Source of the DNA: an uncultured Candidatus Saccharibacteria bacterium
Lineage (GTDB): Bacteria > Patescibacteriota > Minisyncoccia > Phycocordibacterales > UBA918
NCBI GenBank assembly: GCA_964350735.1
Contig: CAYGKO010000001.1
Location: forward strand, 246,578-310,577
Direction of reading: 5' to 3'
DNA length: 64,000 nucleotides
Numbering within the stretch: the stretch's first letter is position 1; each line of letters begins with the position of its first letter. The notes below the pieces were generated by a model. The model was given only the letters and a program-made list of their open reading frames with translations. It did no database searches and had not been told where the DNA came from. The position numbers were made by a program, and so were the translations under genes. This document shows positions 12,918 to 61,439 of the stretch, piece after piece.

Positions 12918-14321
12918 TTACACTTGTGCACGCTTACGCACATCAGCGAAGGTGACATCCTCAAGGAGTACGCCATCTCGATAGACCGTCTGCAACAGAT
13001 TGCGCTTTGGATCTAACAGTTCAGCTTCGGCAACAGTACTCTGCGAGCAGCCGCCGATACCACATGAGTCGATGAGGGCTAGGCGTCCGGCTTTGGAGAC
13101 TTTGCCCTGGTCGGTGATCGGATCTTTTTTGATTGCGATCCTCCGGCCATCTTCAACCACTTCGTTCGCCTTCATGGCGTACTTGTGGTCGTCACGACCG
13201 ACGCCCTGCAATAGAGCGCCACCCATGCCCCACACGAGGTTGTTAACATCGAGGCCACGATCAATCATGGCCGCGATGGTGGTCTGCAGACGAGCTTTGT
13301 CCGTCTGGTCGCCTTGAATGACGCCGACTTGTTTGGGTAGCGTGCGATAGCCTTTCTGGGTTTCGCCGTGTCCAAACTTGTCCATCACCATTTCGATGGT
13401 CTCGATCGGCATTTTGGTCGGGTCGCCCGAGTCAGGACGAATAACCAATTTGCCTTGAAGGGCAAGCACGTCATCTTTCAGCTGATCGCCGATCACGTTC
13501 TTGACGAATGAGAAGATGTCATAACTGTCGCCGACGATCGAGAAGAGCGCATCAGGTGCGTCGAACTCCCTAATCATGTGACGCACGTAGTCGACTTCAC
13601 GGTCTGGTCCCCAGGTCGTCGCAATTGAGTGCTCCGACGCAGGAACCGAGAATCCGGCGCAGTCTTCATGGTAGAACCGACGAGCACCAACAAGCGCCTC
13701 GACGTTGTCTGTGCCCATAAAGTTGACCAAATGTCCCATGCCGCCAAGCATGGCCGACTCGCCCGAAGACGCGCCCCGGCCGCCGAAATCATGCAACTTG
13801 AACCAAATTGCTTCTTCTGGTTCGTCTGCGGTGATCTGAAGACCGGCCATGATGACTTTCTTCGCCTCGCGGGAAAGCGTGGCGACGGTCGATGGGTACC
13901 AGATAGCGCGCAGCATTTGGGTTTCTACCCACGTGGCGAACCACGCGAGCTGCGGGTCGGTGCTGCGAACTTGGACTTGCACATTCCCCGGGAGGATCAG
14001 GCTGCCTTCCGGCGCTGCCTGAATTTCCAAGGGAGCCCGTCCACCGTACTGATCGACGATGTAGCGGAAGCCCGCTTCATTGAAGAAGCCAGGCCGCACG
14101 TGAGCGTCCATAATGGACTTCGCCTCATCAACCATCTCGTGCGTATAAGGACGCATAAGATAGGACTTGATGTAGGCCTGAAGGCCGAAGTTCACGACTT
14201 CAGCAGTCAAACCACCACGCGGTTCGATGTAGCCGGACTTTTCAGTCACGCCAGCTGGATCCATTTTCCAATGGCCGAACTTGTAGGTGTCGGCCGAGGC
14301 CAGTGGGTTGAGAGGAAACAT
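12918..14321 (-). CDS. nadV: nicotinamide phosphoribosyltransferase (NadV/NAMPT family)
   Basis: About 467 aa from MFPLNPLASADTYKFGHW (SD GGAGAAACTC upstream); HDFGGRGASS; PRTase type II fold signature. The longer listed ORF start carries a non-coding-looking N-terminal extension. Confidence 0.8.
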   Translation of the reverse strand: MFPLNPLASADTYKFGHWKMDPAGVTEKSGYIEPRGGLTAEVVNFGLQAYIKSYLMRPYTHEMVDEAKSIMDAHVRPGFFNEAGFRYIVDQYGGRAPLEIQAAPEGSLILPGNVQVQVRSTDPQLAWFATWVETQMLRAIWYPSTVATLSREAKKVIMAGLQITADEPEEAIWFKLHDFGGRGASSGESAMLGGMGHLVNFMGTDNVEALVGARRFYHEDCAGFSVPASEHSIATTWGPDREVDYVRHMIREFDAPDALFSIVGDSYDIFSFVKNVIGDQLKDDVLALQGKLVIRPDSGDPTKMPIETIEMVMDKFGHGETQKGYRTLPKQVGVIQGDQTDKARLQTTIAAMIDRGLDVNNLVWGMGGALLQGVGRDDHKYAMKANEVVEDGRRIAIKKDPITDQGKVSKAGRLALIDSCGIGGCSQSTVAEAELLDPKRNLLQTVYRDGVLLEDVTFADVRKRAQV

Positions 14322-14340
14322 GAGTTTCTCCTTTCTCAGT

Positions 14341-15237
14341 TTAAGATTGGTTGAGATGATCGAGCAATGCAGCCCCGAGTATCTGATGGGCATCGATAAG
14401 GTTGTCTATCAGGTCTTCGATGCGGAAGCATTTGACCGCGCTGATGTCGTCATTTGCGGTCGGTGCTTTCCAGCTGTTGGTGACGAGAAAGAAGTCGGTG
14501 CGAGTGCCATCTGCTTCGTCGCGGTAACGCATATCGTCGATTTTGAAATCGCCGATATGGACTGGGTTGCTTAGATTAAGCTCACCAAACTCTTCTTTGG
14601 TTTCCCGCAGCGCAGCAGCTTTTCGGGTCTCATCGCTTGGGTCAACAAACCCGCCGACGAAACGCCATTTGCCACAGTCTTCAGGTTTTTGACCGAGCCA
14701 GATAAATTCTCTGGCTCCATCCATCACCGCCACATCGACGGTAGACAGATCGACCGGATAGCGGCGGGTCGCGTGAGCGATCCAGCCCCGACGGTAGTCT
14801 GCGTTAGTGGTTTCGACTCCTTCGACTTTGATCCGATGCCGGATCTCAGTTCCTGAAGGAGCAGCGACCGGGTCAATTTCTTTGACCGGAAACGCGCCGC
14901 TGTAGTAGGGAGCGAATCCATCGCGTGAGCAGTAGAGGGTGACCTCGGCATCATGCGCGATCTCGTTCACCGTGCGATCAAGCTCGGCGCTCCAGCGTTC
15001 GTTGCTCGGCGTATCTTTGAGTGTCCCGACCAATATGGAAGGGAAGTGCTCATGGACCATCTGAGCGCGAAGGGGTGCTGGTAGCGGGTGCTTGGCACCG
15101 GGCACTTTGTCGCGTTCGCCGAGTAGTACGAGCACTGCATCATTTTCTGCTGTGACCGACTCGATGAGGTGGATATGGCCAGCGTGCAGGATGTCGACCT
15201 GCATGCGAGCGACGATAACACCAAGTGACTGTTTCAT
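14341..15237 (-). CDS. nadM: bifunctional NMN adenylyltransferase / Nudix ADP-ribose pyrophosphatase (NadM-Nudix)
   Basis: N-terminal VIVARMQVDILHAGHIHLI (HxGH nucleotidyltransferase); C-terminal Nudix box GGFVDPSDETRKAAALRETKEEFG. Confidence 0.8.
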   Translation of the reverse strand: MKQSLGVIVARMQVDILHAGHIHLIESVTAENDAVLVLLGERDKVPGAKHPLPAPLRAQMVHEHFPSILVGTLKDTPSNERWSAELDRTVNEIAHDAEVTLYCSRDGFAPYYSGAFPVKEIDPVAAPSGTEIRHRIKVEGVETTNADYRRGWIAHATRRYPVDLSTVDVAVMDGAREFIWLGQKPEDCGKWRFVGGFVDPSDETRKAAALRETKEEFGELNLSNPVHIGDFKIDDMRYRDEADGTRTDFFLVTNSWKAPTANDDISAVKCFRIEDLIDNLIDAHQILGAALLDHLNQS

Positions 15238-16357: not shown

Positions 16358-18448
16358 TTATACCACTTCCTTCTTCCACTTCTTCAGTACTCGAGAGAGT
16401 ACAATCGAAGCGATGAAGATTCCAACCGACAACGCCAGGAATTTTGGATCAAAGGCGTCGAAGGAGAGCCCAGAAGTACGGAACTCTTCGAGATCGATCG
16501 CGGCTCCGAGGGCAACGAAAGTAGTAAGGCCAGGCATGATACCAATCAAGGTAGCAGTGAAGTATGACTTCCAGTCTACCTTGAGAATCCCTGAGCCGTA
16601 GTTAGTGAGATCAAACGGCACATAGAAGAGACGCATAAAGAGAACTGACTCAAACGGTCGCTTGCGCAGCGCCTCTACCCAGTTGCCAATGATTGAATCT
16701 TCGAGCTTAAGGTCTTTCCCGAAGAAGCGGCCAATCCAGTAGGCGAAGTTAGCTGAGGCGTTTTCACCCAGAACGGTATACAAGATACCCCACCAGAGTC
16801 CAAAGAGCGCACCCGAGAGCGCTGTCAGCAGTGTAGCCGGAAAGAAGATAAGTGGACGAATGGCGTATAAGACCATGTAGACCACCGGCCCCCACATACT
16901 CGTCGTAAAGAAGGTGAGGAGGGTGAGTAAGAACTCGATGTTGCTGAGACCGTTGTCAGTTTTGTAGTTTTGGAATGCAACCAAGAGACCAATCCAGAAG
17001 ATAGCGGCGATTAGTTTCGGTGCGTGCTTTTTGGCGGCAGTGCTGAGGTCTTGTTTTAGGTCAGCAAACTGTTGCGCGAAGAAATAGTCACCGGCTTTCT
17101 TAACGATCAAGCTGTAGGTCGGGTAGGCGTAAATGAGATTACGCAATTTCCACATCGAAATCTTATGGTCAATCGCCAGGGTGAAGACAGAAAGAATTTC
17201 TCCAGCGGCGGGGCCAATAATATTGGCTCCCAGTACTTGGCCATTGAGGCGACGTGCCACTACTACCAATCGTCCGTCGGTCACGTCATCAGTATGAGCT
17301 CGGTCGTTCGCTGAGAAGGGGACTTCGACTTTCATTACCCCGCTTTCCGAGTATTTTGCTACGGCTTCTTTGTATGACAAGCCCACTTGCGCGATCTCAG
17401 GGGTGGTGAAGGTGACTTTCGGAATGGCCTTGTTCTTCTTTACTCGGAAGATGCCTTTACTGACTACTCGAGTAACAATCTGCCGAGCAATGTCGTCAGC
17501 CATGTGGGTAAACTTGAATTTTTGGGTCACATCACCAACCGCGTATACATATTTGTTTGAAGTACGGTGTTGTTTGTCGACGCAGATGCACTGCGGGCAG
17601 TTTTCAATCCCAGCTGCTTCAAGGCCTTTGGGAAAATTTGGGACGCGACCAATAGCAATGAGCGTTTTGTCGTAGGCTACTCGGATGGTTTCGGTAGTGT
17701 CTCCATCACGTCCGTCTGGCTTGATGTTAAATAACGCTTGCTTGTTTTCAACATTCGAAATATGCGCGTTGAGTAAGATCTTAATGTCTAAGTCCTCAAA
17801 CTTCTTCTGAATGATGGGGGAGATAGTCTCGTCTTCAAGTTTGGCGAAACGATTACCAGTGTCAGCGATAGTGACTTGGCTACCAAGCATAGCGAAGGCT
17901 TGGGCCATTTCCATGCCGATTGGCCCACCGCCGATGATGAGCAGTTTTTCCGGCACGTCTGACAGTGCAAAGATATTTTGGTTGGTTAAAATATCATTGG
18001 CGTTCATACCCGGTACATCGATCATCCGTGGGCTCGAGCCAGTGGCGATGATAGCGTTTTTGTAGTGGTAGGTGTCGTCGCCAACGGTGATACTGCACTT
18101 TGATTTGAACACGGCATCACCCATCACCACATCGATCCCAATTTTTTCAAAGGTTTCTGGAGTTTCTTCTTCCAAAATCGCATCAATTTTCGCGCGTACA
18201 TATGAAAAAGCTTCTGAGCGGAAGGTTTCACCAGTAGTAGTTTCTCCCGCGATCGTCTTAGCAAGATGGTAATCCTTAGCGTGGTGCAAGAGGGCTTTAC
18301 TGGGGACACAGCCTGAGTTGGTGCATTCGCCACCCATGTGTTCTTTTTCAACCAGTAGTACTTTCTTACCGACTTTGGAGAAACCAACCGCAGCGGTGAG
18401 TCCGCCTGATCCGGCTCCGATTACAACAACGTCATATGATTTCTCCAT
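16358..18448 (-). CDS. fusion protein: class-I pyridine nucleotide-disulfide oxidoreductase + C-terminal DedA/TVP38 (VTT) membrane domain
   Basis: N-terminal DVVVIGAGSGGLTAA...GGECTNSGCVPSK (FAD site and redox-active CxxxxC), NAD site IIGGGPIGMEMA. C-terminal about 230 aa with 5-6 TM helices and DedA motifs F(x)PATLLTALSGALFG...RLFYVPFDLTNYGSGILKV...GIMPG. Confidence 0.8.
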   Translation of the reverse strand: MEKSYDVVVIGAGSGGLTAAVGFSKVGKKVLLVEKEHMGGECTNSGCVPSKALLHHAKDYHLAKTIAGETTTGETFRSEAFSYVRAKIDAILEEETPETFEKIGIDVVMGDAVFKSKCSITVGDDTYHYKNAIIATGSSPRMIDVPGMNANDILTNQNIFALSDVPEKLLIIGGGPIGMEMAQAFAMLGSQVTIADTGNRFAKLEDETISPIIQKKFEDLDIKILLNAHISNVENKQALFNIKPDGRDGDTTETIRVAYDKTLIAIGRVPNFPKGLEAAGIENCPQCICVDKQHRTSNKYVYAVGDVTQKFKFTHMADDIARQIVTRVVSKGIFRVKKNKAIPKVTFTTPEIAQVGLSYKEAVAKYSESGVMKVEVPFSANDRAHTDDVTDGRLVVVARRLNGQVLGANIIGPAAGEILSVFTLAIDHKISMWKLRNLIYAYPTYSLIVKKAGDYFFAQQFADLKQDLSTAAKKHAPKLIAAIFWIGLLVAFQNYKTDNGLSNIEFLLTLLTFFTTSMWGPVVYMVLYAIRPLIFFPATLLTALSGALFGLWWGILYTVLGENASANFAYWIGRFFGKDLKLEDSIIGNWVEALRKRPFESVLFMRLFYVPFDLTNYGSGILKVDWKSYFTATLIGIMPGLTTFVALGAAIDLEEFRTSGLSFDAFDPKFLALSVGIFIASIVLSRVLKKWKKEVV

Positions 18449-29055: not shown

Positions 29056-30423
29056 ATGCGCTACGTATCCATTTTCTTACTCTTCATCATGCTGCTTCCA
29101 GCTACTGCTTCAGCGCAGTCTGCTTCAGAAACCATGCTGCGCCAGCAACTGATTGCTTTGATTCAATCACTGCAGATCGAGTTGGCGGCCAGACTAGGGC
29201 AGCAGGGCATGCCAGTAGCAAACATTGACTCAGCTCGTTTACGTAGTCAGGATTTTTCAGAAGGGGTTAACTTTATCTATCCGGCCGATAAAGATTTTTC
29301 TTTCTATATGATTGAGAATGGTACTGAGTTTGGGGAAGATATCGATACGCGCTCGTGGCATATCGTATCCAACAATACATTGGTCGGAAATATCGACTTG
29401 GGCAACGAGTTGGTTAGTGAGGCATTTGAAGCGGCATTGGCAGTGGTGGAACTGGCGGCCATGTTTAGTGGCTTTTCTGACACCTCAATAGATATTGAGG
29501 ATCTGCCAAGGCAAAATGGGTACGACATCAAACATTTGGTAATTGAGGATGCTGGTGAAGTGGCCGGAACTTACATTGCTCAAAAAGAGCTTACCTACCG
29601 AGGGGAGTCATACATTGTTTTACTACGAATCGTGTACGGTAATTTAGAGAGCACACTTGAATCGGTAGCAGCACAATACGATACGGACTTTGATGATTTC
29701 TATTTCCCCACTAAGGCAGAAGCTCGCAACTTCTTCAACACAGTAGTGCGTGAAACAGAGTTTGATGTACGAGCAATCAGTCGGGTGATTGAAAATACTG
29801 ATGCTGAGTTGCGTGATTTGATTGAAGACGCGCGCGATGAAGGGCCAGAAGATGAAGAAGAATTTTCCGTTCGACCAGTAAGTAGAGCAGATCATTATCA
29901 AGGTAGTCTGAATGCAGAAGTGCAGTTGATTTCGTATATCGGCTTTGACGATCCATTTTCACGAAACTTGCACGAAACCCGGAGTCGAATTATGGATGAA
30001 TACGACGCACGTGAAGTGGTTTGGGTATATCGAAATTTTCCGATTGCTCAGTTACATCCAAATGGTCCAGCATTGGCAGCAGCAGCAGAGTGTGTGGCGA
30101 CTGAAGGAGGAAACACAGCGTACTGGAAGTTCGTTGATAAGATCTTCTCAGATCGCACTGCGTCAGCAAAAACGGACATGGACGACCTCCCGTCCTACGC
30201 CCGCAGTGCGGGAGTCTCCACCAGTCGATTTAATACGTGTGTTGAAGAAGGGGAAACTGAAGCTGTGGTCACTGCAGACTTTGAAGAAGGGGTAGCAGCT
30301 GGAGTAGTTGGGACACCGCATACCGTGGTGATTGTTGGTGATAAAAAAGGTGTTATTAACGGTGCTCAGCCGTATGCAGTTGTGAAGCAGACAATTGATA
30401 ACTTGCTTATGCAGTTAGACTAG
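29056..30423 (+). CDS. secreted DsbA-like thioredoxin-fold protein with degenerate active site (DPFS instead of CxxC), long N-terminal unknown domain
   Basis: Signal peptide MRYVSIFLLFIMLLPATASA. C-terminal about 170 aa match the DsbA/BdbD layout (EVQLISYIGFDDPFSRNLHET...VVGTPHTVVIVGDKKGVINGAQP) with the catalytic CPxC replaced by DPFS. Confidence 0.6.
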   Translation: MRYVSIFLLFIMLLPATASAQSASETMLRQQLIALIQSLQIELAARLGQQGMPVANIDSARLRSQDFSEGVNFIYPADKDFSFYMIENGTEFGEDIDTRSWHIVSNNTLVGNIDLGNELVSEAFEAALAVVELAAMFSGFSDTSIDIEDLPRQNGYDIKHLVIEDAGEVAGTYIAQKELTYRGESYIVLLRIVYGNLESTLESVAAQYDTDFDDFYFPTKAEARNFFNTVVRETEFDVRAISRVIENTDAELRDLIEDARDEGPEDEEEFSVRPVSRADHYQGSLNAEVQLISYIGFDDPFSRNLHETRSRIMDEYDAREVVWVYRNFPIAQLHPNGPALAAAAECVATEGGNTAYWKFVDKIFSDRTASAKTDMDDLPSYARSAGVSTSRFNTCVEEGETEAVVTADFEEGVAAGVVGTPHTVVIVGDKKGVINGAQPYAVVKQTIDNLLMQLD

Positions 30424-38696: not shown

Positions 38697-40406
38697 ATGC
38701 AGAAAAGTGTACTGGTACTAGGTGGTGGGGTGGCTGGACTCACAGCTGCTCATGAACTCATTGAACGAGGCTTTTCGGTGACGGTTATTGAGCCACATGC
38801 ACTAGCTGGGGGTAAAGCTAAGAGTGTTGGGGTGGCTGGTACTGGTACGAAAGGTCGTAAAGACCTGCCTGGTGAACATGGCTTCCGATTTTTCCCCGGC
38901 TTTTACCAGCACCTCCCCGAGACGATGCAACGTATTCCCTATGGCAAAGGAGTAGTGCTTGATAATTTAGTGAACGCAACTGAAACATTTGTGGCTGATG
39001 CGGAGCATGGATCGTTTAAAACCTCGACTACCTACTGGGGTAATTTGCGCAACTCTATTTCTGTGATGCGTGGCACTAATCGTCTCAATCAGCTTGGTAT
39101 TCCGGAAGAAGATCTTGAGCACTTTGGAAAAGCTCTTTGGCAGGTATTTTCGATGTGTCAGGAGCGCCGAGATACTGAACTTGACGCGGTCAGTTGGTGG
39201 GAGTTTATGGATGCTGATAATCGCTCGCAGGTCTATCAAGACCAGATGGTTATTAATACCACCAAGACTTTGGTCGCGAGTGATCCGTGGCGGGCTACGG
39301 CGCGGACGGTGGGTACCATTGCGATTCAGATGTTTCAAGACATGCAAAAGCTAAAAGGTAATTCTGACCGAGTGTTATGTGGTCCAACCAATGAAGTCTG
39401 GATTGAGCCTTGGTATTGGCATTTACATCATCTCGGAGTCACTTTTGTACACGGGGAGTCAGTGACGGCTATCACCGAGAGTGAGGGGGCGGTCGTGAGT
39501 ATTCAGACTCGAGATGATGCTAATGAATTGCACACACATGCCGCCGATGAGTATGTGTTAGCGGTACCAGTTGAGGTAGCGGCTCCGTTATTGAAGCCAC
39601 TACAGAAACTGGATGATCAATTCAAAGACCTGCAAGAATTGGCTACTATGATCAATTGGATGAATGGGATTCAGTATTACTTATATGAAGATGTGCCGAT
39701 CGTGCATGGACACGAAATGTTGCCGCAGACAAAGTGGGCTTTAACGGCCATCTCGCAAGCCCAATTCTGGCCTGATTTTGACTTAACTGGGTATGGAGAC
39801 GGAAAGGTACAGGGAGTGCTGTCCGTAGATATTTCAGATTGGCACGTTCCTGGATTGCTTCATAAAAAGCCGGCGATTAACTGCACGCCCGAAGAAATTG
39901 CAGAGGAGACCTGGTATCAACTAAAACGAGCTATCAATGTTGATGAAGAATTGCTGACAGATGAAAATAAACATTCGTGGTTTTTAGATCCTGACATTCA
40001 GCGCTCACCGCAGAACCCACACGAAAACATTAATCTTGAGCCTTTGCTGGTAAATTTGATTAACAGTTGGGAGTTGCGGCCGAATGTCGCCACTAAACTA
40101 GCAAATCTATTCTTAGCCTCAGATTATGTCAAAAATAATACTGACCTGGCTACCATGGAAGGAGCGAATGAATCTGCTCGTCGAGCAGTGAATTACATTC
40201 TTGATAAAGATCAGACTGAACATTCGCATAAGCCTTGTAAAGTATTTCCACTGCGCGAGCCAATGTATGCCCGTTTATTACAACGCTACGATAAAAAACG
40301 CTTTGATCGGGGACTACCCTGGCGAGCCCGTCCACCGATGTGGTTGTTTTGGCCGGTAGCGCTGTTTATGGTGTTGTATCGTCTGGGAACTGGTTTGAAA
40401 AAGTAG
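38697..40406 (+). CDS. FAD-dependent oxidoreductase (amine-oxidase / phytoene-desaturase-like fold) with C-terminal TM helix
   Basis: VLVLGGGVAGLTAAHELIERGFSVTVIE (dinucleotide-binding GxGxxG); 569 aa; C-terminal hydrophobic PMWLFWPVALFMVLY. Confidence 0.65.
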   Translation: MQKSVLVLGGGVAGLTAAHELIERGFSVTVIEPHALAGGKAKSVGVAGTGTKGRKDLPGEHGFRFFPGFYQHLPETMQRIPYGKGVVLDNLVNATETFVADAEHGSFKTSTTYWGNLRNSISVMRGTNRLNQLGIPEEDLEHFGKALWQVFSMCQERRDTELDAVSWWEFMDADNRSQVYQDQMVINTTKTLVASDPWRATARTVGTIAIQMFQDMQKLKGNSDRVLCGPTNEVWIEPWYWHLHHLGVTFVHGESVTAITESEGAVVSIQTRDDANELHTHAADEYVLAVPVEVAAPLLKPLQKLDDQFKDLQELATMINWMNGIQYYLYEDVPIVHGHEMLPQTKWALTAISQAQFWPDFDLTGYGDGKVQGVLSVDISDWHVPGLLHKKPAINCTPEEIAEETWYQLKRAINVDEELLTDENKHSWFLDPDIQRSPQNPHENINLEPLLVNLINSWELRPNVATKLANLFLASDYVKNNTDLATMEGANESARRAVNYILDKDQTEHSHKPCKVFPLREPMYARLLQRYDKKRFDRGLPWRARPPMWLFWPVALFMVLYRLGTGLKK

Positions 40407-48279: not shown

Positions 48280-49155
48280 TTAGAGTGGTCGCAATCCAAA
48301 GTTGTTTTGCTGAACGATAGTACTTTCAGTATTTATGATTAGACAGTCGCTGTGTGTCGCAAGCCTAGCCTTAGGTTGAATGGAAAGGGTCGTAGCAAGC
48401 ATGTCTGCTTCTGCGGCTAGGTTGTTGCAAAGAAAGGCAGCGTGCTCTTGTGTAGTTTCTCCAGTTTGTACATGTATAAAGTGAGAGTATTGTTTTCCAG
48501 TGCTTTGATCATTCCATGTTCGCAAGGCTGGACTCGAGGACGCTAGAGCCTGGTGCTCAAGGGTGATTGACCCAATATAAGTTCCCGGTTTAAAGGGGTG
48601 TTCGAGAGTGACGGCAATCGGTTTGCCCTGCTCGGTAGTGCCATACATATCACCACCGCCATTAATTAGAAATTCTTCGATGTGATGAGCTTTTAGCATT
48701 GTAGTAATATCGTCAATCAACCAACCTTTACCAAAGCCACCAAGATCTATTTTCCCCGTAGTTAAAATAATTTCACTCGCAGAAACCCTCAGATCATTAA
48801 GCGGATTTGCGATCGCTACTGGCTTTTGAGCCGAAAAAGAACATGATGCGTCGTAGCCATTAGCTTCCTGGTTTGCTCCGGTCAGGAAATTAAAAATACC
48901 GTCTGTTTGGGTATAGTACTGTTGGCCCAACGTCAGTAACGTAACGAATTCGCTGGAAGGGTTTTGCAGTCGACCAGTAGTATTTAGCTGTGTTAGTAGT
49001 GAGTCGGGCTGAAAACGGGAATAGGTAGCTTCGAATATACGTAAACGGCGACTGATGAGATCAGAGATCTCATCAGTCGCCGTTTCGCTCAGGCTTTCAA
49101 ACAGCTCAATCCACCAGACTGTCCCTAGTGCTTTGATTGGGCCAATTTTTTTCAT
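48280..49155 (-). CDS. apbE: FAD:protein FMN transferase (ApbE family)
   Basis: TGKIDLGGFGKGWLIDDIT...LINGGGDMY...IAV matches the ApbE core motifs. Confidence 0.8.
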   Translation of the reverse strand: MKKIGPIKALGTVWWIELFESLSETATDEISDLISRRLRIFEATYSRFQPDSLLTQLNTTGRLQNPSSEFVTLLTLGQQYYTQTDGIFNFLTGANQEANGYDASCSFSAQKPVAIANPLNDLRVSASEIILTTGKIDLGGFGKGWLIDDITTMLKAHHIEEFLINGGGDMYGTTEQGKPIAVTLEHPFKPGTYIGSITLEHQALASSSPALRTWNDQSTGKQYSHFIHVQTGETTQEHAAFLCNNLAAEADMLATTLSIQPKARLATHSDCLIINTESTIVQQNNFGLRPL

Positions 49156-49157
49156 CT

Positions 49158-49760
49158 CTAACTTCGAGCTTCAACTTCGATAGTGGTAACCGCCTCGTTA
49201 AAAGATTCTGTTGTCAGTGAAGCTCCAGCCACGCGACTTAGTGCCACTTCATCTAGCTGCATTCCAATCACCTCTGTTTTATAGGCTGCATCGAATCGCC
49301 GCTGGTGACTATTACTTGGACCATCACCGTTATCGTACACAATGCTTGAATTTGAGATTACATCGTTCTCAATCGTGACTGTAATATCCATTGAGTGAGA
49401 GCTTCGTGATGGTGTGAGGTAGGACACACTAGTGGTGTAATTACCGTTCACAAAGTTTGTGACTGGGGTAGCTGGGGGAGGGGTAGTAGAGACTGGGTCT
49501 GCTTCTACCACCGGCTCTTCTGATGCTGCCGTATCGATGCTGGTTTCTACAGCCGCCTCAATGACAGCATCCTCACTTGGTTCCGGTGCTGGAACGGGAT
49601 CTGATTGAGTGGCAATTTCTTCAGTTCCAATCTCTTGTTCGGTCCGATTCATTTCCACCGTTGTTTCAACTGAAGTGGGGGCTTCTGGTTCTGAAGTAAA
49701 GAAATAAGCACCAGCTCCAACGGCGAGTACTACGATGACGGCAATGGCTAAAATAGGCAT
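49158..49760 (-). CDS. membrane-anchored FMN-binding domain protein (RnfG/NqrC-like, probable ApbE substrate)
   Basis: N-terminal TM, Pro/Glu/Thr-rich linker, C-terminal FMN_bind-like domain with flavinylation-type motif ...ALSRVAGASLTTESFNEAV. Confidence 0.65.
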   Translation of the reverse strand: MPILAIAVIVVLAVGAGAYFFTSEPEAPTSVETTVEMNRTEQEIGTEEIATQSDPVPAPEPSEDAVIEAAVETSIDTAASEEPVVEADPVSTTPPPATPVTNFVNGNYTTSVSYLTPSRSSHSMDITVTIENDVISNSSIVYDNGDGPSNSHQRRFDAAYKTEVIGMQLDEVALSRVAGASLTTESFNEAVTTIEVEARS

Positions 49761-49835
49761 AATGAATTTAAGTAACTTATGTGAATCAATTTTCTCAGGT
49801 ATTATACGTTTGATTAATTACATTAACAATTAGCT

Positions 49836-51350
49836 ATGTTTCTAGTTACGGGAATAGAACGATTTTTAGATGGAGTCACCATGTACCGGGCGGTATTGTA
49901 CGCACTACTGGTGCTGATTGGGGCGGCTTTGATTTTAGGCTTGATGGATATAGTGGTGTACAGCCCGCTTGAGCAAATAGTCTCGCTAGCTGTCGCAGTC
50001 GGAACCGCTCTTTTGGTAAATTTTGTCTGTGCGAAATTGTGGAAAGTACCAGCAAATCACGAGTCAGTTCTTATCACGGCTGGGATTATTTATTTCTTAT
50101 TCCTACCAACTCTGTTGTGGTCTGAACTGGTCGTTATCGCACTAGCAGTAGTAATTGCTATGGTGTCAAAATATCTCATTGCGTGGCGGAAACAGCATAT
50201 TGTAAATCCAGCCGCTATTGGTGCAGTGGGAGTTGCTTTGCTTGGGTTTGATCCGGCTCTTTGGTGGGTGGGTACTCCGGAGATGTTTTTGCCGATGCTG
50301 GTTGTGGGAGTGTTGGTAGTAATGAAGGTACGAAAATGGACACCGGTGCTAAGTTTCATCAGTGTTGGATTTTTGGTGTACAGCTTAGAGGCACTGCGGT
50401 TTGGGCTCAGCCCAATAACGGAAGCTCCAGCCTACTTCTTATCGTGGCCGACGTTGTTCTTGGCCACCATTATGCTCACGGAGCCATTCACCATGCCGCC
50501 GACTAAGAAATTACAGATGGTCTACGGGGGTTTGGTTGGAGTACTCTCGAGCACGACACTTCTCAGTGGGTTGGTAGCAATGACACCAGAACTGGCGTTG
50601 GTGGTTGGTAATATAGCGATGTATTCGTTTACCTTGCGACAAAAACTGATACTGACCCTGATCGAAACCAGGACTATTGCTACTGACACACTAGAGTTTG
50701 TCTTTAAGAAACCAGCAGGCCTACATTTTAAAGCGGGACAATACTTAGAGTGGACCGTTGGACATGAAGGGGCTGACAAGCGAGGGATTCGTCGTTACTT
50801 TACGATTGCTTCCAGTCCAACTGAATCTACCGTTCACTTGGCCGCTCGTTTTGTGCCTGAAGGTAGTACGTACAAAAAAGCCCTCAAGACGCTACAGCCC
50901 GGAGACACAATCGTCGCCAGTCAGTTGGCCGGAGATTTTGTATTACCAACAGACCAATCAGTAAAATGCGCATTGGTAGCTGGAGGGATTGGAGTAACGC
51001 CGTTTCGTAGTCATATAAAAGAGTGGCTCGATACTAATTCACAGCGCGATATCACTCTGTACTACTGCAATAACACTGAAGCAGATATTGCGTATACCGA
51101 TATTCTCACCGCTGCACATGAGCGGGAGAACTTTGCGTTGGTGCAGGTACTGGGTAAGGAAGAACGAGCTGGCATGGAGCATGGCTATATCACCTCAGAG
51201 ATGATTGTCCGGCGCACACCAGACTGGAATGAACGCACGTGGTACCTGTCGGGGCCGCCGCCAATGGTGCATGCGTACTCTAAGCTTTTACTTGATATGG
51301 GTCTTAGTCGACATCAAGTAGTCAAAGACTTTTTCCCTGGACTGGCATAA
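49836..51350 (+). CDS. polytopic membrane domain fused to a ferredoxin-NADP reductase-type FAD/NAD(P)-binding module
   Basis: About 270 aa N-terminal with 6-8 TM, then RRYFTIASSP (RxYS FAD motif) and VAGGIGVTPF (NAD(P) motif), C-terminal GPPPMV. Confidence 0.7.
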   Translation: MFLVTGIERFLDGVTMYRAVLYALLVLIGAALILGLMDIVVYSPLEQIVSLAVAVGTALLVNFVCAKLWKVPANHESVLITAGIIYFLFLPTLLWSELVVIALAVVIAMVSKYLIAWRKQHIVNPAAIGAVGVALLGFDPALWWVGTPEMFLPMLVVGVLVVMKVRKWTPVLSFISVGFLVYSLEALRFGLSPITEAPAYFLSWPTLFLATIMLTEPFTMPPTKKLQMVYGGLVGVLSSTTLLSGLVAMTPELALVVGNIAMYSFTLRQKLILTLIETRTIATDTLEFVFKKPAGLHFKAGQYLEWTVGHEGADKRGIRRYFTIASSPTESTVHLAARFVPEGSTYKKALKTLQPGDTIVASQLAGDFVLPTDQSVKCALVAGGIGVTPFRSHIKEWLDTNSQRDITLYYCNNTEADIAYTDILTAAHERENFALVQVLGKEERAGMEHGYITSEMIVRRTPDWNERTWYLSGPPPMVHAYSKLLLDMGLSRHQVVKDFFPGLA

Positions 51351-51363
51351 CTAATGTAGTAAA

Positions 51364-51398
51364 AGAACGACAGAAGCTGGGCTTCTGTCGGTCTTTTT
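51364..51398 (+). terminator. rho-independent terminator
   Basis: AGAACGACAGAAGC-tggg-CTTCTGTCGGTCTTTTT. Confidence 0.8.
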
Positions 51399-51415: not shown

Positions 51416-51982
51416 ATGATTTGGCTCAAAAACCTCGTACTCGAATTAGGCCCGCTCGTACTCTTTTTTGTTGCAGACGCCTACATTGGGTTTTTCCCGG
51501 CGGTTGCAGTGTTGATTGTGAGTACGCTCCTTACACTTCTGTATACCTGGTATGGAGAAGGGAGACTCCCGTACTTCGCTTTATTCACGGCTGTAACGGT
51601 CGGGGTGTTTGGCGGACTCAGTATTGCATTCGGCGACGCTGATTGGTTTATCATTTCCGACACTTTTTTGGATATTGGGTTCGCATTGGCGTTGTACGCT
51701 AGTCTTTGGTTTAAAAAACCACTGTTACAAATACTATTTGAATCTTCGTTTGCTATTACTGACCGGGCTTGGCGTATCCTCACCATTCGCTGGACGATAC
51801 TTTTCTTAGGTTTGGCGATTGCTAGTGAGGCTATTCGACAACTGTACTCAGTTGATACGTGGGTACAATTTAAAGCCTTGTCAGTCTTTGTTATTCTCGC
51901 ATTTGGTTGTTATCAATTCACCTTGTCACGAAAAGAGCGTTTACCAGAAGTTTCAAATGACTGGGGTTTACGAGTCAGATAG
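51416..51982 (+). CDS. YciB/IspZ-family inner membrane protein
   Basis: Pattern GPLVLFFVADAYIG...LIVSTLLTLLYTW...VGVFGGLSIAF...WFKKPLL parallels E. coli YciB throughout; TTATACT 8 nt upstream of the ATG. Confidence 0.55.
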   Translation: MIWLKNLVLELGPLVLFFVADAYIGFFPAVAVLIVSTLLTLLYTWYGEGRLPYFALFTAVTVGVFGGLSIAFGDADWFIISDTFLDIGFALALYASLWFKKPLLQILFESSFAITDRAWRILTIRWTILFLGLAIASEAIRQLYSVDTWVQFKALSVFVILAFGCYQFTLSRKERLPEVSNDWGLRVR

Positions 51983-52834
51983 TTTTTTTGGTAGCCAGGG
52001 AATGAAGTAGTTGGTAGTCGCCATGTACTTTTTATATTCCTCTGGATATTTCTCTAAGAAAATATCTTCGAGCATTGGTCCAGTTACTTTGGTCAAAATA
52101 AAAGTGATCAAGAGTGGTGAGAGGAGCGCCAAAAAGCCGTACTGAAAAGGGAAGGCAATGATTGCCAAGCCCCACCAGATGAGTGATTCACCAAAGTAGT
52201 TTGGCCGTCGGGAGTAGCGAAACAAACCAGCTGTCATTAGGGTCTTTTCTTCAGTGCCAGCGATCTTACGTTTAATAAACTGATCGAGTTGCCAGTCGGC
52301 TGTTGTTTCAAGTAGGAGGCCCAGTAGCCAAATGCCAATCCCGGCATACATCAGTATAGAGATGCTAGTCGCTGGACCAGCTATCTCCGCTGCGATCACG
52401 AGTATCATTGGTAGTGACACCAGCACAATGATAATGCCTTGCAGAATATTGATCTGTAAGTAGCTGCGCAATAAAAAGTACAACCACCCTCGTTGCATCC
52501 ACTTAGTGCGCCAATTTTTGTACCGCTGATCCTCAGGTTTCCCCCAATTTTTTCGTCCGATTCGAATCCCAAGGCGTAGCGCCCAGACGGTTACTAAAAT
52601 AGCGACAATTATTGTGATCGGAGTCAGGGTGTTGGTTAATAAAATTGTGGCCCAGGTACTGACTGCAAAAGCCGGTCCGTATGATATGTCCATAACACTG
52701 TTGTCTTGGCGGGCTTGAGCTATCAAGAACACCCCCGTTACATATATAAGTGTACAGAGCGCAAAAATCCCTAACGTCAGTAAAAAGAACACATCAATGC
52801 CGAATAACGAAAGATCTGGAGAAGTAAGAATCAT
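51968..52834 (-). CDS. DUF1295 / steroid-5-alpha-reductase-like membrane protein (ICMT/PEMT superfamily)
   Basis: GLFRYSRRPNYFGESLIWWGLAI carries the RHPxYxG-type motif of this superfamily; polytopic. Confidence 0.6.
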   Translation of the reverse strand: MILTSPDLSLFGIDVFFLLTLGIFALCTLIYVTGVFLIAQARQDNSVMDISYGPAFAVSTWATILLTNTLTPITIIVAILVTVWALRLGIRIGRKNWGKPEDQRYKNWRTKWMQRGWLYFLLRSYLQINILQGIIIVLVSLPMILVIAAEIAGPATSISILMYAGIGIWLLGLLLETTADWQLDQFIKRKIAGTEEKTLMTAGLFRYSRRPNYFGESLIWWGLAIIAFPFQYGFLALLSPLLITFILTKVTGPMLEDIFLEKYPEEYKKYMATTNYFIPWLPKKLSDS

Positions 52835-52891: not shown

Positions 52892-53599
52892 ATGCCCCGG
52901 GCACAGGCACGTTCTACAGAGAATGAAACCACAGTAAATACAGTGGCGGCTAAAAGACGTGCGCCCCGGAAGACTGCAGCCAAAAAAGCGGTAGTAAAAA
53001 AGACGACCAAGAAAGTGGCTGCCAAAAAAGTAGTCCGAAAAAAAGTAGTTAAGAAAGTAGTAAAGCGTTCTGTTGAACGTAAGGCGCCGACCGACGGTTT
53101 AGTTAGTAAAAAACGAGTGGCTATTAATTGGCTGTATATTATTCCAACAGTAGCGGTAGTTTTAGTGATTGCTGCCTCAGTTGCGATCGGATCAACGGAT
53201 GATGGAGTAATAAATGTTGATACTGTAGTGGCAGAAAAAATTGCGCAACGAGAAGCACGACAAGAAGCATTGGAGGCTGAAGGTAAGTCGGAAGAATTTG
53301 CGGAGGAAGAAATCGCACCAGTCGCCACTGGACGTCCAGATGTGCCCGATGGTGGTCTACGGGGACTGGGACAGAGTGCTGCCAAGCCAAAACCACCGAC
53401 GCCAACAGCAAGTACAACAGAAGCCGCAAGCACTACTGCATCGAGTGCAACCGCAAGCTCAACTGATGCTGGAGGAGAGGATATAGAAACCGAAGTTCAA
53501 AACGATGAAGTGACAGAGGAAGGTTCTGACGCTGAAGAGCAAGTAATACCAGAGGAGTCTGAGTCAGGGGTGGCAACGAGCAGTGATCCTACGATTTAG
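52892..53599 (+). CDS. membrane-anchored histone H1-like lysine-rich protein
   Basis: N-terminal AAKRRAPRKTAAKKAVVKKTTKKVAAKKVVRKKVVKKVVKR (H1/Hc1/AlgP-like KKxx repeats), one TM helix, acidic Ser/Thr-rich C-terminal tail; TACAAT -10 upstream. Confidence 0.6.
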   Translation: MPRAQARSTENETTVNTVAAKRRAPRKTAAKKAVVKKTTKKVAAKKVVRKKVVKKVVKRSVERKAPTDGLVSKKRVAINWLYIIPTVAVVLVIAASVAIGSTDDGVINVDTVVAEKIAQREARQEALEAEGKSEEFAEEEIAPVATGRPDVPDGGLRGLGQSAAKPKPPTPTASTTEAASTTASSATASSTDAGGEDIETEVQNDEVTEEGSDAEEQVIPEESESGVATSSDPTI

Positions 53600-54000
53600 T
53601 TTTTTTGGCATTTAGCACACCGACACCCCTCGGGTCCGATGATGTCACGAACATACATTTTGCCGTAGCTGTAGGTAATTTCATCTCCAGCCTTTATGTT
53701 TTTACAGGCTCGTATATAAATTCTATTTTCCTCTTCATCGTGTTCGGCTTCGGCGTTGGGGATACATGAGTGGTTGGCGTAACGGGCAATATTCTCGCGC
53801 CCTTTACCATCGATAACCAGATCGTCAGTCACTTCAAATAGATAGCGTCCACCGCGTTTATTGGCTTCTGCTTCCGTGATTCGTTCACCGGTGTACTCAA
53901 TAATCAGCTGCTCTTTTGGTATAGCTTCAGCCGCAAAAAGTCCTAGTCCAGCACTAGATCGCTTCACTGCAACTTTTGGTCGGTATGAATCATCTGACAT
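53596..54000 (-). CDS. SET-domain protein lysine methyltransferase
   Basis: GRYLFEV...IDG...GNIARYANHSCIPN...ITYSYG and post-SET CRCAKC. Confidence 0.85.
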   Translation of the reverse strand: MSDDSYRPKVAVKRSSAGLGLFAAEAIPKEQLIIEYTGERITEAEANKRGGRYLFEVTDDLVIDGKGRENIARYANHSCIPNAEAEHDEEENRIYIRACKNIKAGDEITYSYGKMYVRDIIGPEGCRCAKCQKN

Positions 54001-54023: not shown

Positions 54024-54557
54024 TTATTGTTGCTCAATAATTAAAGACAAGAGCTCAATTAGCTTAATTAATAAAGCTCGCTTCTGGTTCATTTCTGTAT
54101 CTGGAACTCTGAACAATAGATCTATCTCAGAGAGTGGTGTTGCGTATTGGGTAGAATCATCCAAGTTGTTGATAGAACGTATTGGGGCGCTTTCAGTTTG
54201 GGGGTTAGTAGTTAGAGTGCTCACACTGTTAATTTCTTTTTCTAATTGGGTCAAAATTTGCTCAACTGTACTAATGTCCGTAAAGGCACGTTGGTAGGAT
54301 TCTGTAGCAAATGATTCCTGAGCTTCGCTGAGAGCCGCCTCAGCGTCAGCAAGAGTATCTTCAAAATTAGTTATAGAGACGTCGTCATCTGCAAGTGCGG
54401 TGAGTAGGTCATCATAGTTAGCAATTTCTTGAGTTACTTCTATGAGTGATTCACGTACAGTTTCGAGTGCTGTTTGAGCTTGTGTATATAAAGGTGTAGC
54501 GAGAGCTACTAAGCAAAATAAAAGAAACGGTTGTAAACAAATTTGGTTTTTTGGCAT
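54024..54557 (-). CDS. secreted acidic alpha-helical protein
   Basis: Signal peptide MPKNQICLQPFLLFCLVALATPLYTQA; Asp/Glu/Thr-rich. Confidence 0.5.
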   Translation of the reverse strand: MPKNQICLQPFLLFCLVALATPLYTQAQTALETVRESLIEVTQEIANYDDLLTALADDDVSITNFEDTLADAEAALSEAQESFATESYQRAFTDISTVEQILTQLEKEINSVSTLTTNPQTESAPIRSINNLDDSTQYATPLSEIDLLFRVPDTEMNQKRALLIKLIELLSLIIEQQ

Positions 54558-55029: not shown

Positions 55030-56319
55030 TTATCGATTAGATAGAATCAATAGAAGTAGGTTGCGCACGAGCGTTACCAATTCTTCACGAATCTTTTCTT
55101 CATCTGCGTCAGCTAGATCGGCATCTCCATTTAAGATGTCTTGCAAGCTAATGTCAGAATTCGAATCATTCATTTCGTTCTCTTCGGTAGTGTCTTCCAT
55201 CTGAATGTCTACCAGTTCAGTCGCTTCTTCGACAAGTTCTTTAGCTTCTTCAAGAGCGTCTTCGGCCTCTTCGTCGTCACCAGATTTGATTGCCTCTTCT
55301 GCATCGTCAAGCAATTCTTCGGTGTCTTCAATCAGTTCTTCTACCTTTCTTGATTCGGTAGCGAGCATTTCGTCCTCATCGTCTTCAAAGGCGTCTTTGA
55401 CAACATCAAGCATGTCTTCAATTTCTTTCAGTTCTGCTTCCAGGTCTTCATTTTTGCTGACTTCGTTCGCATCGTTTTCTTCTGCTGCGTCTAAAGCAGC
55501 TTCAGCTTCGTTAAGAAGTTCTAAAGCTTCGTTAGCTAGTTTTTTAGATTCAATATAATCTTCATCATCAAACTCGTCTTCTGCTTCTTCGTACAGATCG
55601 CGAGCTTCGTCGTAGAGTTCCTCAGCGTCTTCTGTGTCGACACCATCTACTTCTGCTTCATTGATTTCATCTTTTACATCTTCTAGTTCTTCTTCAACCT
55701 CCTCCAAAAGTTCTTCAGCCGCTTCTTCACGATCAGATTCCGTCATCGAGACGAAGTCATCTGCATCAGCATTTAGGACATCAAAGATTTCCTCAGCAAA
55801 TTCTTCAGCGGTTTCCGCTTCGGTAACTGCAGTTTCGTAGTCCTCTCCATCAAAAGCATCTTCTGCATCATCAATCGCTCGGTCTGCTTTGGTCATCAAA
55901 GCCAGTGCTTCGTCGATTTGTGTTTCTGGGATATCGTCATCGTCTTTAGCGATGTCGATTGCTTCTTCAGCTCCCTCGATGATGTCTTCTACATCATCAA
56001 TCTTTTCTCGAGCTCCGCCTTTTTCAAAACTATCATCAGCATCAACGGTAAGTACCTCTTCTACCTCATCTTCATCAATATCCAATTCGTTAGCAATTTT
56101 CTTAACAAGTTCGTCGAGGGTACCAACGTTATTGTACGAATACTCTTCTTTAACGTTATCTCCGTCATCATCGTATGAGACCTCCACTTCTGCCTCACTG
56201 TCTTCTACGGTAGCTTCGATTTCCAGATCATCATAAGCAAACGCCTGAAACGTGAGCCCGAAAAATAATAGTAGTGCGATTAGAGTGCTGTAGGCACTAT
56301 TTCTAATAGTAGTAATCAT
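55030..56319 (-). CDS. very acidic (about 40% Asp+Glu) coiled-coil protein with N-terminal signal/anchor
   Basis: MITTIRNSAYSTLIALLLFFGLTFQAFA then repeats EEAEDxFDDEDYE..A; antisense Ser-rich ORFs are low-complexity artefacts. Confidence 0.55.
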   Translation of the reverse strand: MITTIRNSAYSTLIALLLFFGLTFQAFAYDDLEIEATVEDSEAEVEVSYDDDGDNVKEEYSYNNVGTLDELVKKIANELDIDEDEVEEVLTVDADDSFEKGGAREKIDDVEDIIEGAEEAIDIAKDDDDIPETQIDEALALMTKADRAIDDAEDAFDGEDYETAVTEAETAEEFAEEIFDVLNADADDFVSMTESDREEAAEELLEEVEEELEDVKDEINEAEVDGVDTEDAEELYDEARDLYEEAEDEFDDEDYIESKKLANEALELLNEAEAALDAAEENDANEVSKNEDLEAELKEIEDMLDVVKDAFEDDEDEMLATESRKVEELIEDTEELLDDAEEAIKSGDDEEAEDALEEAKELVEEATELVDIQMEDTTEENEMNDSNSDISLQDILNGDADLADADEEKIREELVTLVRNLLLLILSNR

Positions 56320-60932: not shown

Positions 60933-61033
60933 TATACAGATCACATACGCACGTTATGTCTCAGTAGATTTTAAAAAAGCACCCAATTGGGAGCTTTTTT
61001 AAACTTTCATATATTTCTACATACTTCTATGTC

Positions 61034-61439
61034 GGTGGAGATGGCGGGAGTTGAACCCGCGTCCGAATCAGGATTCCAAATGTGAGTCTACAGTGCGTAG
61101 ACGCTTCTTTGATTTAAAACTAGTAGCTATAGAAGTGACAAAACACTACTGGTTCGAGTTCGTACAATCTCGATCTGCTACGTGAACGGCGTAATAGTAT
61201 CCAGTCTCGTGTTTATTCTACCCAATCAGCCGTATGAGACGTTTAACTGATGAGCATCGCATCGGCGAGCGGATGGTTACGCTACAGCGGGTGCGAATCC
61301 GAACGCGTTAGCGTACGGACTTGGTATTGCTTTGTTTGCAAATACGGGTGGAACCTTTTAACGAATTGATTCCAATTTCGACACTGCACACAATGGGCAC
61401 GCTAACCGTCGATGCCTGGCATCCCCGGAAAGTTTTTAA
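61034..61439 (-). ncRNA. ssrA: tmRNA (transfer-messenger RNA)
   Basis: Minus-strand 5' end GGGGATGCCAGGCATCGACGG and 3' end GGACGCGGGTTCAACTCCCGCCATCTCCACC match the tmRNA tRNA-like domain (E. coli: GGACGCGGGUUCAACUCCCGCCAGCUCCACCA). Putative resume codon GCA about nt 88 in ...GUAUUUGCAAAC..., reading ANKAIPSPYANAFGFAPAVA-stop. smpB lies 570 nt upstream. Confidence 0.85.

Follow-up and report, generated by a model that had tools for sequence, protein, structure and literature searches.

The class of flavinylation-associated gene clusters named 'NQR/RNF-like' is characterized, in the passages of Méheust et al. (2021; eLife, PMC8238504) that introduce it, by a fusion of PF03116 and PF00175, and these passages, together with corresponding ones of a 2024 follow-up, report it mainly from Actinobacteria and the Candidate Phyla Radiation (CPR). 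The electron flow proposed in that part of the 2021 paper is outward, and the census described there required a PF04205 match plus a predicted signal peptide or lipobox (PMC8238504). The 2024 preprint of the same group (PMC10979944), in its account of a modelled Ktedonobacter complex, describes the flavinylation site of NqrB/RnfD as not conserved and suggests that the flavin site of the RnfD-like subunit is sampled by the covalent flavin mononucleotide (FMN) of its NqrC/RnfG-like partner. In the canonical complexes, RnfD/NqrB has 10 transmembrane (TM) helices, with riboflavin near the cytoplasmic side and a covalent FMN near the outer side, ~8 Å off, and RnfG/NqrC is a mobile, N-terminally anchored FMN domain (PMC12174285). 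Here we analyzed a 64,000-nt stretch of DNA of a Patescibacteria (CPR) bacterium (the window), in which three genes located within positions 48280-51350 probably (with a likelihood of about 65%) form an NQR/RNF-like transmembrane electron-transfer module leading from NAD(P)H to a covalently flavinylated surface protein.

The locus is composed of a fused reductase gene and a divergently transcribed pair of genes encoding an anchored FMN_bind subunit and the flavin transferase ApbE. For the three window proteins there are no public names on record. The genes, domains and predicted acceptor site are as follows (positions in the window):

49836..51350, plus strand: reductase gene, open reading frame (ORF) of 504 aa, divergent from FMN_bind-apbE
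49836..50645, plus strand: residues 1-270 of the reductase, NqrB/RnfD-like membrane domain (PF03116, AlphaFold2 model, Foldseek, hhalign)
50646..51350, plus strand: residues 271-504 plus stop, ferredoxin-NADP reductase (FNR)/NqrF-type domain predicted to bind flavin adenine dinucleotide (FAD) and NAD(P)H (Pfam, NCBIfam, Foldseek)
49158..49760, minus strand: FMN_bind subunit gene, ORF of 200 aa, NqrC/RnfG-like by architecture
49695-49754, minus strand: residues 3-22 of the subunit, putative TM anchor (hydrophobic N-terminal segment)
49461-49694, minus strand: residues 23-100 of the subunit, linker of acidic, Pro/Glu/Thr-rich composition
49161-49460, minus strand: residues 101-200 of the subunit, FMN_bind domain (family profile against PDB 8P2A; PF04205 matches of orthologues)
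49218..49220, minus strand: TCA codon of Ser181, predicted ApbE flavinylation acceptor (orthologue column and 8P2A alignment)
48280..49155, minus strand: apbE, ORF of 291 aa (Pfam ApbE match)

The architecture (PF03116-PF00175 fusion, anchored FMN_bind subunit, clustered ApbE) is identical to that of the NQR/RNF-like systems, and with the FMN_bind gene 75 bp from the reductase gene and apbE next to it, the genes lie within the five-gene criterion of the class. The window locus is thus an NQR/RNF-like system, whose architecture has already been published and hence is not new. An earlier examination of the DNA made without database searches (the sequence-only reading) had placed the three ORFs at the same positions and strands and had taken them for one module, carrying electrons from NAD(P)H through the membrane to an ApbE-flavinylated anchored protein by means of a different, fused reductase. 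That proposal gains support from the co-conservation and the domain identities described below.

Conservation of the three-gene module

The family of the 504-aa protein is large, with more than 5,000 database matches and an occurrence in at least 582 species-representative genomes. The membrane domain alone gave 513 clusters at 50% identity (E ≤ 1e-30), most of them with proteins of ~480-530 aa, which indicates that the fused form is the norm. Gene linkage was counted in the best 80 species-representative reference-genome loci (numbered with the prefix L), within 3 kb of the reductase gene. By their titles, nearly all of these loci belong to Patescibacteria (Paceibacteria, Kaiser-, Nomura-, Levyi-, Davies-, Uhr-, Magasanik- and Peribacteria, and others).

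Of the 80 loci, 72 have ApbE near the reductase gene, 72 have an FMN_bind gene there, and 67 have both; in roughly half of the 13 loci without the full trio, a contig end truncates the locus. The trio occurs in at least four gene orders: (i) the divergent order of the window (34 loci), (ii) co-directional FMN_bind, apbE and reductase genes (21 loci), (iii) reductase followed by apbE with a convergent FMN_bind gene (6 loci), and (iv) reductase, FMN_bind and apbE (3 loci). The FMN_bind and apbE genes are adjacent and co-oriented in 58 loci. The association of the three genes is far beyond chance, and the neighborhood check proposed in the sequence-only reading thus shows them co-conserved through rearrangements. 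No other gene family is steadily linked in the 80 loci, so that the trio is self-contained.

Other candidate partners were discarded. Genes for uracil-DNA glycosylase, Fpg and ATP synthase accompany the trio in only 18-23 of the 80 loci, which looks like synteny, and a linked 'family' of 49 loci proved to be an antisense ORF inside the reductase gene. The ATP-synthase subunit genes lie at most 5 kb from the trio in ~18 of the 80 loci (e.g., L009, L013, L015 and L040), probably as clade synteny. One contig, JABAZV010000018.1, carries two copies of the fused reductase ~30 kb apart in a single genome, one in a complete trio with ApbE (L040) and one with an FMN_bind gene only (L036).

The fused reductase

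The 504-aa protein combines PF03116, PF00970 and PF00175 in one chain. Its N-terminal half scored 29.1 bits against PF03116 (NQR2_RnfD_RnfE; cut-off 27.7), and the remaining part matched FAD_binding_6 (PF00970) and, at residues 380-482, NAD_binding_1 (PF00175; E = 1e-14). The NCBIfam matches of the C-terminal half are of the BenC/NqrF type, and a Foldseek search with the FNR half retrieved NqrF FAD domains, flavohemoglobin and BenC at E-values of ~1e-14 to 1e-17. The motifs RRYFTIASSP (residues 319-328) and GGIGVTPF (residues 383-390), from which the divergently transcribed protein had been recognized in the sequence-only reading as a polytopic domain fused to an FNR module, are both present as described, and RxYT and GGxGxTP are kept in 81-83 of 83 relatives.

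The fold search with the full-length model was dominated by matches of the FNR domain; the membrane domain was remodelled alone. The AlphaFold2 model of residues 1-272 reached a predicted local distance difference test score of 85 and a predicted template modelling score (pTM) of 0.83. All of its top 15 PDB matches in Foldseek are RnfD/NqrB proteins, with query-normalised template modelling scores of 0.57-0.73 and E-values of 2.5e-6 to 8.5e-4; they include the RnfD chains 9eri_D, 8rbq_D, 8ahx_D and 7zc6_D, as well as NqrB chains of Na+-NQR. The next match followed at E = 0.1, and then came urea and Rh/Amt transporters; urea and Rh transporters are distant relatives of the RnfD/NqrB fold. A comparison with E. 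coli RsxD by hhalign gave a probability of 86% and the shared motifs NPA(A/M) and LT(E/D)P, pairing RKQHIVNPAA with GQNPFNPAM and MLTEPFTMPPT with ILTDPVTASTT. Judged by its family match, profile alignment and modelled fold, the membrane domain is an NqrB/RnfD homologue. The sequence-only reading had asked whether this half might be a Ferric_reduct/MsrQ-like heme domain. That idea was abandoned: the Pfam scan of the reductase gave no match to PF01794 (Ferric_reduct), and the fold matches RnfD/NqrB only. With an NqrB/RnfD-like membrane domain and an NqrF-like FNR domain, the protein is not a siderophore-interacting or ferric reductase, which had been named as the outcome that would speak against the module.

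About 10 TM segments are predicted in the membrane domain, with both termini inside (N-in/C-in). Its characteristic motifs are ANHES (residues 73-77), RKQHIVNPAA (118-127), W143-W144, invariant among the 83 relatives, and MLTEPFTMPPTK (213-224). Several polar residues are also invariant or nearly so (E216 in 83/83, H121 in 82/83, E252 in 81/83 and E76 in 75/83 relatives), and E216 aligns to the Asp of the LTDP motif of RsxD. The periplasmic segment of RsxD, ~80 residues long and containing S-Q-A-T187-P-L, is reduced to ~20 residues here (LGFDPALWWVGTPEMF). The column on Thr187 of RsxD is variable in the 83 relatives (T28/N21/S20/Q7/R3 and others), and an [ST]-G-[AS]-[ST] motif occurs in the membrane domain of only 1 of them; on this alignment, the canonical RnfD flavinylation loop is lost. 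Positive-inside analysis places 13 of the 15 Lys/Arg residues of the membrane domain on the side of the FNR domain, and the loop of residues 136-147 (the former FMN loop, with W143-W144) on the side opposite to it.

The FMN_bind subunit and ApbE

The 200-aa protein had been read as a membrane anchor followed by a Pro/Glu-rich linker and an FMN_bind domain with VAGASLT, and this description holds. Its 78-aa linker contains 15 Glu, 12 Pro and 11 Thr residues, and the C-terminal domain of ~100 aa holds VAGASLT, the putative acceptor standing in the context S-R-V-A-G-A-S181-L-T. The full-length protein has no Pfam match at E ≤ 0.01, and a word-indexed homologue search with it returned 12 matches, none of them annotated. 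Orthologues were gathered from the 80 loci by iterated hidden Markov models. A profile of 71 orthologue C-terminal domains retrieved 8P2A from the PDB at E = 4e-8, with the family motif V-G-G-A-S-L-T sitting on V-S-G-A-T-Y-T of 8P2A. This structure is SaFMN3-D2, an ApbE-flavinylated FMN-binding domain confirmed by crystallography (PMC10339131). Individual matches to PF04205 were obtained for 50 of the 71 orthologues (best E = 1.5e-9). At the level of the family, the 200-aa protein thus appears to contain a divergent FMN_bind domain.

Ser181 aligns on the FMN-bearing Thr of the S-G-A-T motif of 8P2A and is the predicted ApbE flavinylation acceptor. The same column is occupied by Ser in 73 and by Thr in 9 of 82 orthologues, so that an acceptor residue is conserved throughout, as the sequence-only reading had required of its alignment. 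The family motif, [S/D]-[R/K]-V-[G/S]-G-[A/S]-[S/T]-L-T, fits the D-x-x-[ST]-G-A-[TS] type; its first position in the window is Ser, not Asp. The label 'NqrC/RnfG-like' for the subunit follows its predicted architecture (N-terminal TM segment, linker and FMN_bind domain).

The N-terminus of the window subunit is a hydrophobic segment without a positive n-region, and in the clade of the window the anchor starts at residue 2-3. Among the orthologous subunits, those of L043 (...MVGC) and L051 (...LAAC) carry lipobox-like motifs and those of L061-L083 have MKK-type signal sequences, which argues for export and an outside location of the subunit. Two tandem FMN_bind paralogues lie between apbE and the reductase gene in loci L016, L018, L022, L023, L024 and L032.

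The identity of ApbE, proposed in the sequence-only reading, is borne out by a match to Pfam ApbE (PF02424) of 129.5 bits (E = 2e-37). The protein contains the motifs ALGT (residues 9-12), DLGGFGKGW (137-145), GGGD (166-169), YSHFIH (223-228) and AEADMLATT (248-256), and an alignment to the structures from E. coli, S. enterica and V. cholerae (2O18/4XGV, 3PND and 6NXI) shows that DLGGFGKGW, GGD, S-H and EAD are kept.

Proposed mechanism

Starting from these domains and folds, the conserved acceptor residue, the lost RnfD loop and the co-conserved genes, we infer an order of steps by homology, and with it the cofactors of the membrane domain, the direction of electron flow, the acceptor and the side of the membrane on which the FMN domain lies. 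NAD(P)H would be oxidized by the cytoplasmic FNR/NqrF-like domain on its FAD, and the electrons would enter the fused 10-TM NqrB/RnfD-like domain, onto a non-covalent flavin. Since the membrane domain no longer has a covalent-FMN loop of its own, its outer flavin would come in trans from the anchored subunit, on whose Ser181 the adjacent ApbE would install FMN through a phosphoester link. This FMN would occupy or approach the outer flavin site left vacant in the RnfD-like domain. From there, the FMN domain, on its acidic linker of ~78 residues, would hand electrons to an extracytoplasmic acceptor; candidates are Fe(III), free flavins or quinones, O2 and a host-derived oxidant. In this way an organism lacking a conventional respiratory chain would regenerate NAD(P)+.

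The leaderless ApbE and other points against the mechanism

Several observations weigh against the proposed mechanism, and the main residual curiosity among them is the conserved leaderless ApbE. The ApbE domain begins at about residue 2-10 of the window protein. The alignment with the E. coli ApbE construct used for crystallisation, which is truncated at its N-terminus, starts at residue 8 of the window protein and residue 21 of the construct, and inspection of the N-terminus of the window protein revealed no signal peptide, lipobox or anchor. The FMN_bind gene immediately precedes apbE in the same orientation (junction TAG-ag-ATG); the start codon of apbE is only 2 nt past the upstream stop, which leaves no coding room for a leader. 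ApbE is leaderless in ~70 of the 72 linked loci examined, and in the linked ApbEs the (A/M)LGT motif lies a median of 8 residues from its nearest Met. The characterised leaderless ApbEs modify cytoplasmic targets (PMC12052999), which does not account for the flavinylation of an exported FMN_bind domain.

A missed leader was considered and rejected. A hydrophobic N-terminal 'extension' of ApbE, seen in a single case (L059), overlaps the reductase gene, and the apparent extensions in other loci are longest-ORF calls overlapping the upstream gene. An ApbE-FMN_bind fusion, by a frameshift or a missed upstream start, is ruled out by the window junction. Across the loci the FMN_bind/apbE junctions vary (overlaps of 4 nt and 1 nt, gaps of 2 to ~8 nt), so that no frame relation is conserved. 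We consider it possible, but tentatively and below even odds by a wide measure, that the Patescibacteria module pairs a cytoplasmic ApbE with an exported FMN_bind substrate; if both hold, either the Ser receives its FMN on the cytoplasmic face, ahead of Sec translocation or in the course of it, or ApbE leaves the cell along a path that has escaped recognition, or the actual substrate or topology is not that of the published model. In the first of these cases an FAD exporter would not be needed.

The other points against the mechanism concern the sequence comparisons, the model and the gene neighborhood. The isolated FMN_bind domain of the window scores 14.9 bits (E = 0.04), short of the 22 bits required by PF04205, and no NqrC/RnfG chain is found among the PDB profile matches at E ≤ 1. 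An hhalign comparison of the FMN_bind family with E. coli RsxG gave a probability of 2%, a value that is uninformative because the template was a single sequence. The profile of the membrane domain had no match to PDB sequences at E ≤ 1, so that its link to RnfD/NqrB rests on Pfam, hhalign and the fold. The full-length model of the 504-aa protein reached a pTM of 0.62, which leaves the inter-domain geometry uncertain. No conserved acceptor or partner gene occurs near the trio in the 80 loci. Finally, our literature search found no experimental characterisation of the class and no CPR-specific treatment.

Alternative explanations

The best surviving alternative, which we nevertheless consider unlikely, is a minimal ion-motive device, in which the RnfD/NqrB-like domain keeps the cation pathway proposed for NqrB/RnfD, and the oxidation of NAD(P)H would drive Na+/H+ out of the cell or, conversely, an ion gradient would drive the electrons, possibly in addition to plain electron export and not in its place. 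RnfD/NqrB is a candidate ion pathway in NQR and RNF (PMC12174285), and the invariant or near-invariant polar residues E216 (on the Asp of the RsxD LTDP motif), H121, E252 and E76 within the membrane would suit such a role, as would the ATP-synthase genes that adjoin the trio in ~18 of the 80 loci. However, only some members of the family show this adjacency, which resembles clade synteny, and the RnfA/E (NqrD/E) pair, the ion-translocating unit in alternative models, is absent near the trio, as is the switching partner site of RnfG. Electron transfer from NAD(P)H to a flavin with a potential of about -200 mV (SaFMN3, -184 mV; PMC10339131) would also provide little driving force.

It is also improbable that the FMN_bind domain is flavinylated and kept in the cytoplasm, on an anchor with N-out/C-in orientation, and relays electrons between the FNR and RnfD-like domains or serves as a cytoplasmic redox partner, with the membrane domain exporting electrons itself or serving otherwise. 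Such an arrangement would agree with the absence of an ApbE export signal in ~70 of the 72 loci and with the cytoplasmic substrates of the characterised leaderless ApbEs (PMC12052999), and the anchor in the clade of the window has no N-terminal positive charge, so that the positive-inside rule sets no orientation. It conflicts, however, with the lipoprotein-type (L043, L051) or MKK-type signals of subunit orthologues, which imply export, and with the AlphaFold-multimer model of a homologous complex, which docks the subunit extracytosolically in the account given in the preprint (PMC10979944). The vacated FMN-site loop with its invariant WW pair also lies opposite to the FNR domain, and a linker as long, acidic and rich in Pro/Thr as this one would be typical of surface tethers.

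CPR bacteria are often host-dependent episymbionts, and a module running in reverse would suit them: a reductant outside the cell (reduced flavins, host-derived hydroquinones or H2-derived carriers) would feed the surface FMN with electrons and the module would reduce cytoplasmic NAD(P)+. The potentials of flavin and NAD(P) are close, and RNF is reversible (PMC12174285). We regard this import of electrons as very improbable, since electrons passing from a flavin near -200 mV to NAD(P)+ at -320 mV would have to go uphill if no ions were coupled, no donor-side gene is linked to the trio in the 80 loci, and the published proposal, in the passages concerned, has the opposite direction (PMC8238504).

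A stand-alone SIP (siderophore-interacting protein)/Fre-like ferric or flavin reductase lying by chance beside an unrelated ApbE and a hypothetical protein, a view that could draw on the resemblance of the FNR half to generic flavin and ferredoxin reductases and on the middle protein having no Pfam match above threshold, is effectively refuted by co-conservation, as the trio is kept through at least 4 rearrangements in 67 of 80 species-level loci from many Patescibacteria lineages, and its RnfD/NqrB-like membrane domain belongs to a family whose function depends on ApbE-installed FMN.

Genomic context of the module

Three further elements were found in the non-coding DNA of the locus:

49761..49835, no strand: divergent intergenic region of 75 bp, AT-rich, between the FMN_bind and reductase genes
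49829..49801, minus strand: promoter-like sequence TTGTTA-17-TATAAT (10/12), facing the putative FMN_bind-apbE operon (consensus match only)
51368..51390, plus strand: terminator-like hairpin with a 10-bp stem followed by a T-run, 18 nt past the reductase stop (pattern match only)

The number of promoter-like sites in the 75-bp region is not above the expectation from shuffled sequence. According to Pfam, the trio is neighbored in the window by IF3, DUF817, IspA and DUF1295. The last two follow the reductase gene (positions 51416-52834) and encode an IspA/YciB-like septation protein and a DUF1295 (steroid-reductase/ICMT-like) membrane protein; both are also present in a relative with 76% identity (L002), and not in more distant loci.

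CPR bacteria, or Patescibacteria, have tiny genomes and mostly lack respiratory chains. Among the window ORFs scanned there are no respiratory complexes, as had been noticed in the sequence-only reading; this is consistent with a redox-balancing role of the module, which remains speculation, and does not prove one. The rest of the window comprises housekeeping genes (IF3, L35, L20, SecY, EF-G, tmRNA), NAD-salvage genes and a few other flavoenzymes. The tmRNA gene (61033-61426, minus strand) was found at full length with 109.8 bits. On the same strand, a NAMPT/NAPRTase-family phosphoribosyltransferase gene lies beside that of a NUDIX protein (12918-15237), which looks like NAD salvage. The other flavoenzymes include a flavin amine-oxidase/phytoene-desaturase-like protein (38697-40406) and a second membrane-tethered NAD(P)H flavoenzyme of 696 aa (16358-18448, minus strand), in which Pyr_redox_2 and a dimerisation domain are fused to a C-terminal VTT/DedA membrane domain.

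Four more proteins of the window were recorded: (i) a 455-aa protein (29056-30423, plus strand) with a C-terminal Thioredoxin_4/DsbA-like domain and ~270 N-terminal residues without a Pfam match, which may be an extracytoplasmic thiol-disulfide protein; (ii) a 134-aa SET-domain protein (53596-54000, minus strand), also conserved in the closest relative; (iii) a hyper-acidic, Asp/Glu-rich protein of 429 aa (55030-56319, minus strand) with a hydrophobic N-terminal segment and no Pfam match; and (iv) next to the latter, a 177-aa ORF (54024-54557, minus strand) with a signal-like N-terminus.

Comparison with known systems

The NOX/FRE/MsrQ-type enzymes, such as the NOX of S. pneumoniae (PDB 8QT6), share with the window reductase a design for transmembrane electron transfer, in which a polytopic membrane domain is followed at the C-terminus by an FAD/NAD(P)H domain in the cytoplasm. 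Both have homologous dehydrogenase domains, and 8QT6 is among the fold matches of the FNR half. The membrane domain of the window protein, in contrast, is not a 6-TM bis-heme ferric-reductase domain and matches RnfD/NqrB in its fold.

The extracellular electron transfer (EET) of Firmicutes (Listeria; Ndh2, EetA/B, DMK, FmnB and PplA) follows the same logic, from NADH through the membrane to a flavinylated FMN_bind surface protein and an external acceptor, and in this respect the likeness drawn in the sequence-only reading stands. Here, however, neither Ndh2 nor a quinone intermediate is evident, and the membrane step would be taken by an RnfD-like flavin domain. The lipoprotein PplA contains two FMN_bind domains; the window subunit has a single one, on a TM anchor. 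FmnB is an exported lipoprotein, and its FAD is supplied by an energy-coupling factor (ECF) exporter (PMC9973259). The window ApbE, unlike FmnB, is leaderless, which complicates the other part of the likeness, a simple extracytoplasmic flavinylation by analogy with FmnB.

Compared with the published NQR/RNF-like systems, in which, as here, the flavinylation Thr of NqrB/RnfD is not conserved, the window locus has a leaderless ApbE, an acceptor that is mostly Ser in the CPR family, a long and acidic linker, and an FMN_bind copy too divergent for the Pfam threshold. As the census criteria combined PF04205 with a signal, loci with a leaderless ApbE and a divergent subunit may have been under-counted in CPR; if so, the reported under-representation of extracytosolic flavinylation in these bacteria would be partly a detection artefact, and the module, on this rather improbable reading, could be a principal membrane redox device of many CPR lineages. 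It would offer CPR bacteria a simple route for reoxidizing NAD(P)H and for redox contact with hosts or minerals. The locus itself adds an instance and some detail to a class that was defined bioinformatically, and no new concept.

With Na+-NQR (NqrABCDEF) and RNF (RnfABCDGE) the module shares the RnfD/NqrB membrane fold, an NqrF-like FNR domain and the NqrC/RnfG-like architecture of the subunit, and ApbE-dependent FMN is implied. Genes for NqrA/RnfC, NqrD/E (RnfA/E) and RnfB are not conserved around the trio in the 80 loci. In contrast to both complexes, the module has no iron-sulfur ferredoxin domain, no evidence of a quinone site, and a deletion of the covalent-FMN loop of RnfD/NqrB. With the NAD(P)H module fused straight to the RnfD-like domain, only the RnfD 'half-path' is left, and electron flow is presumably one-way. 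Compared with these complexes, the module would be the smallest natural RnfD/NqrB flavin wire, useful for dissecting how NQR and RNF move electrons and possibly ions.

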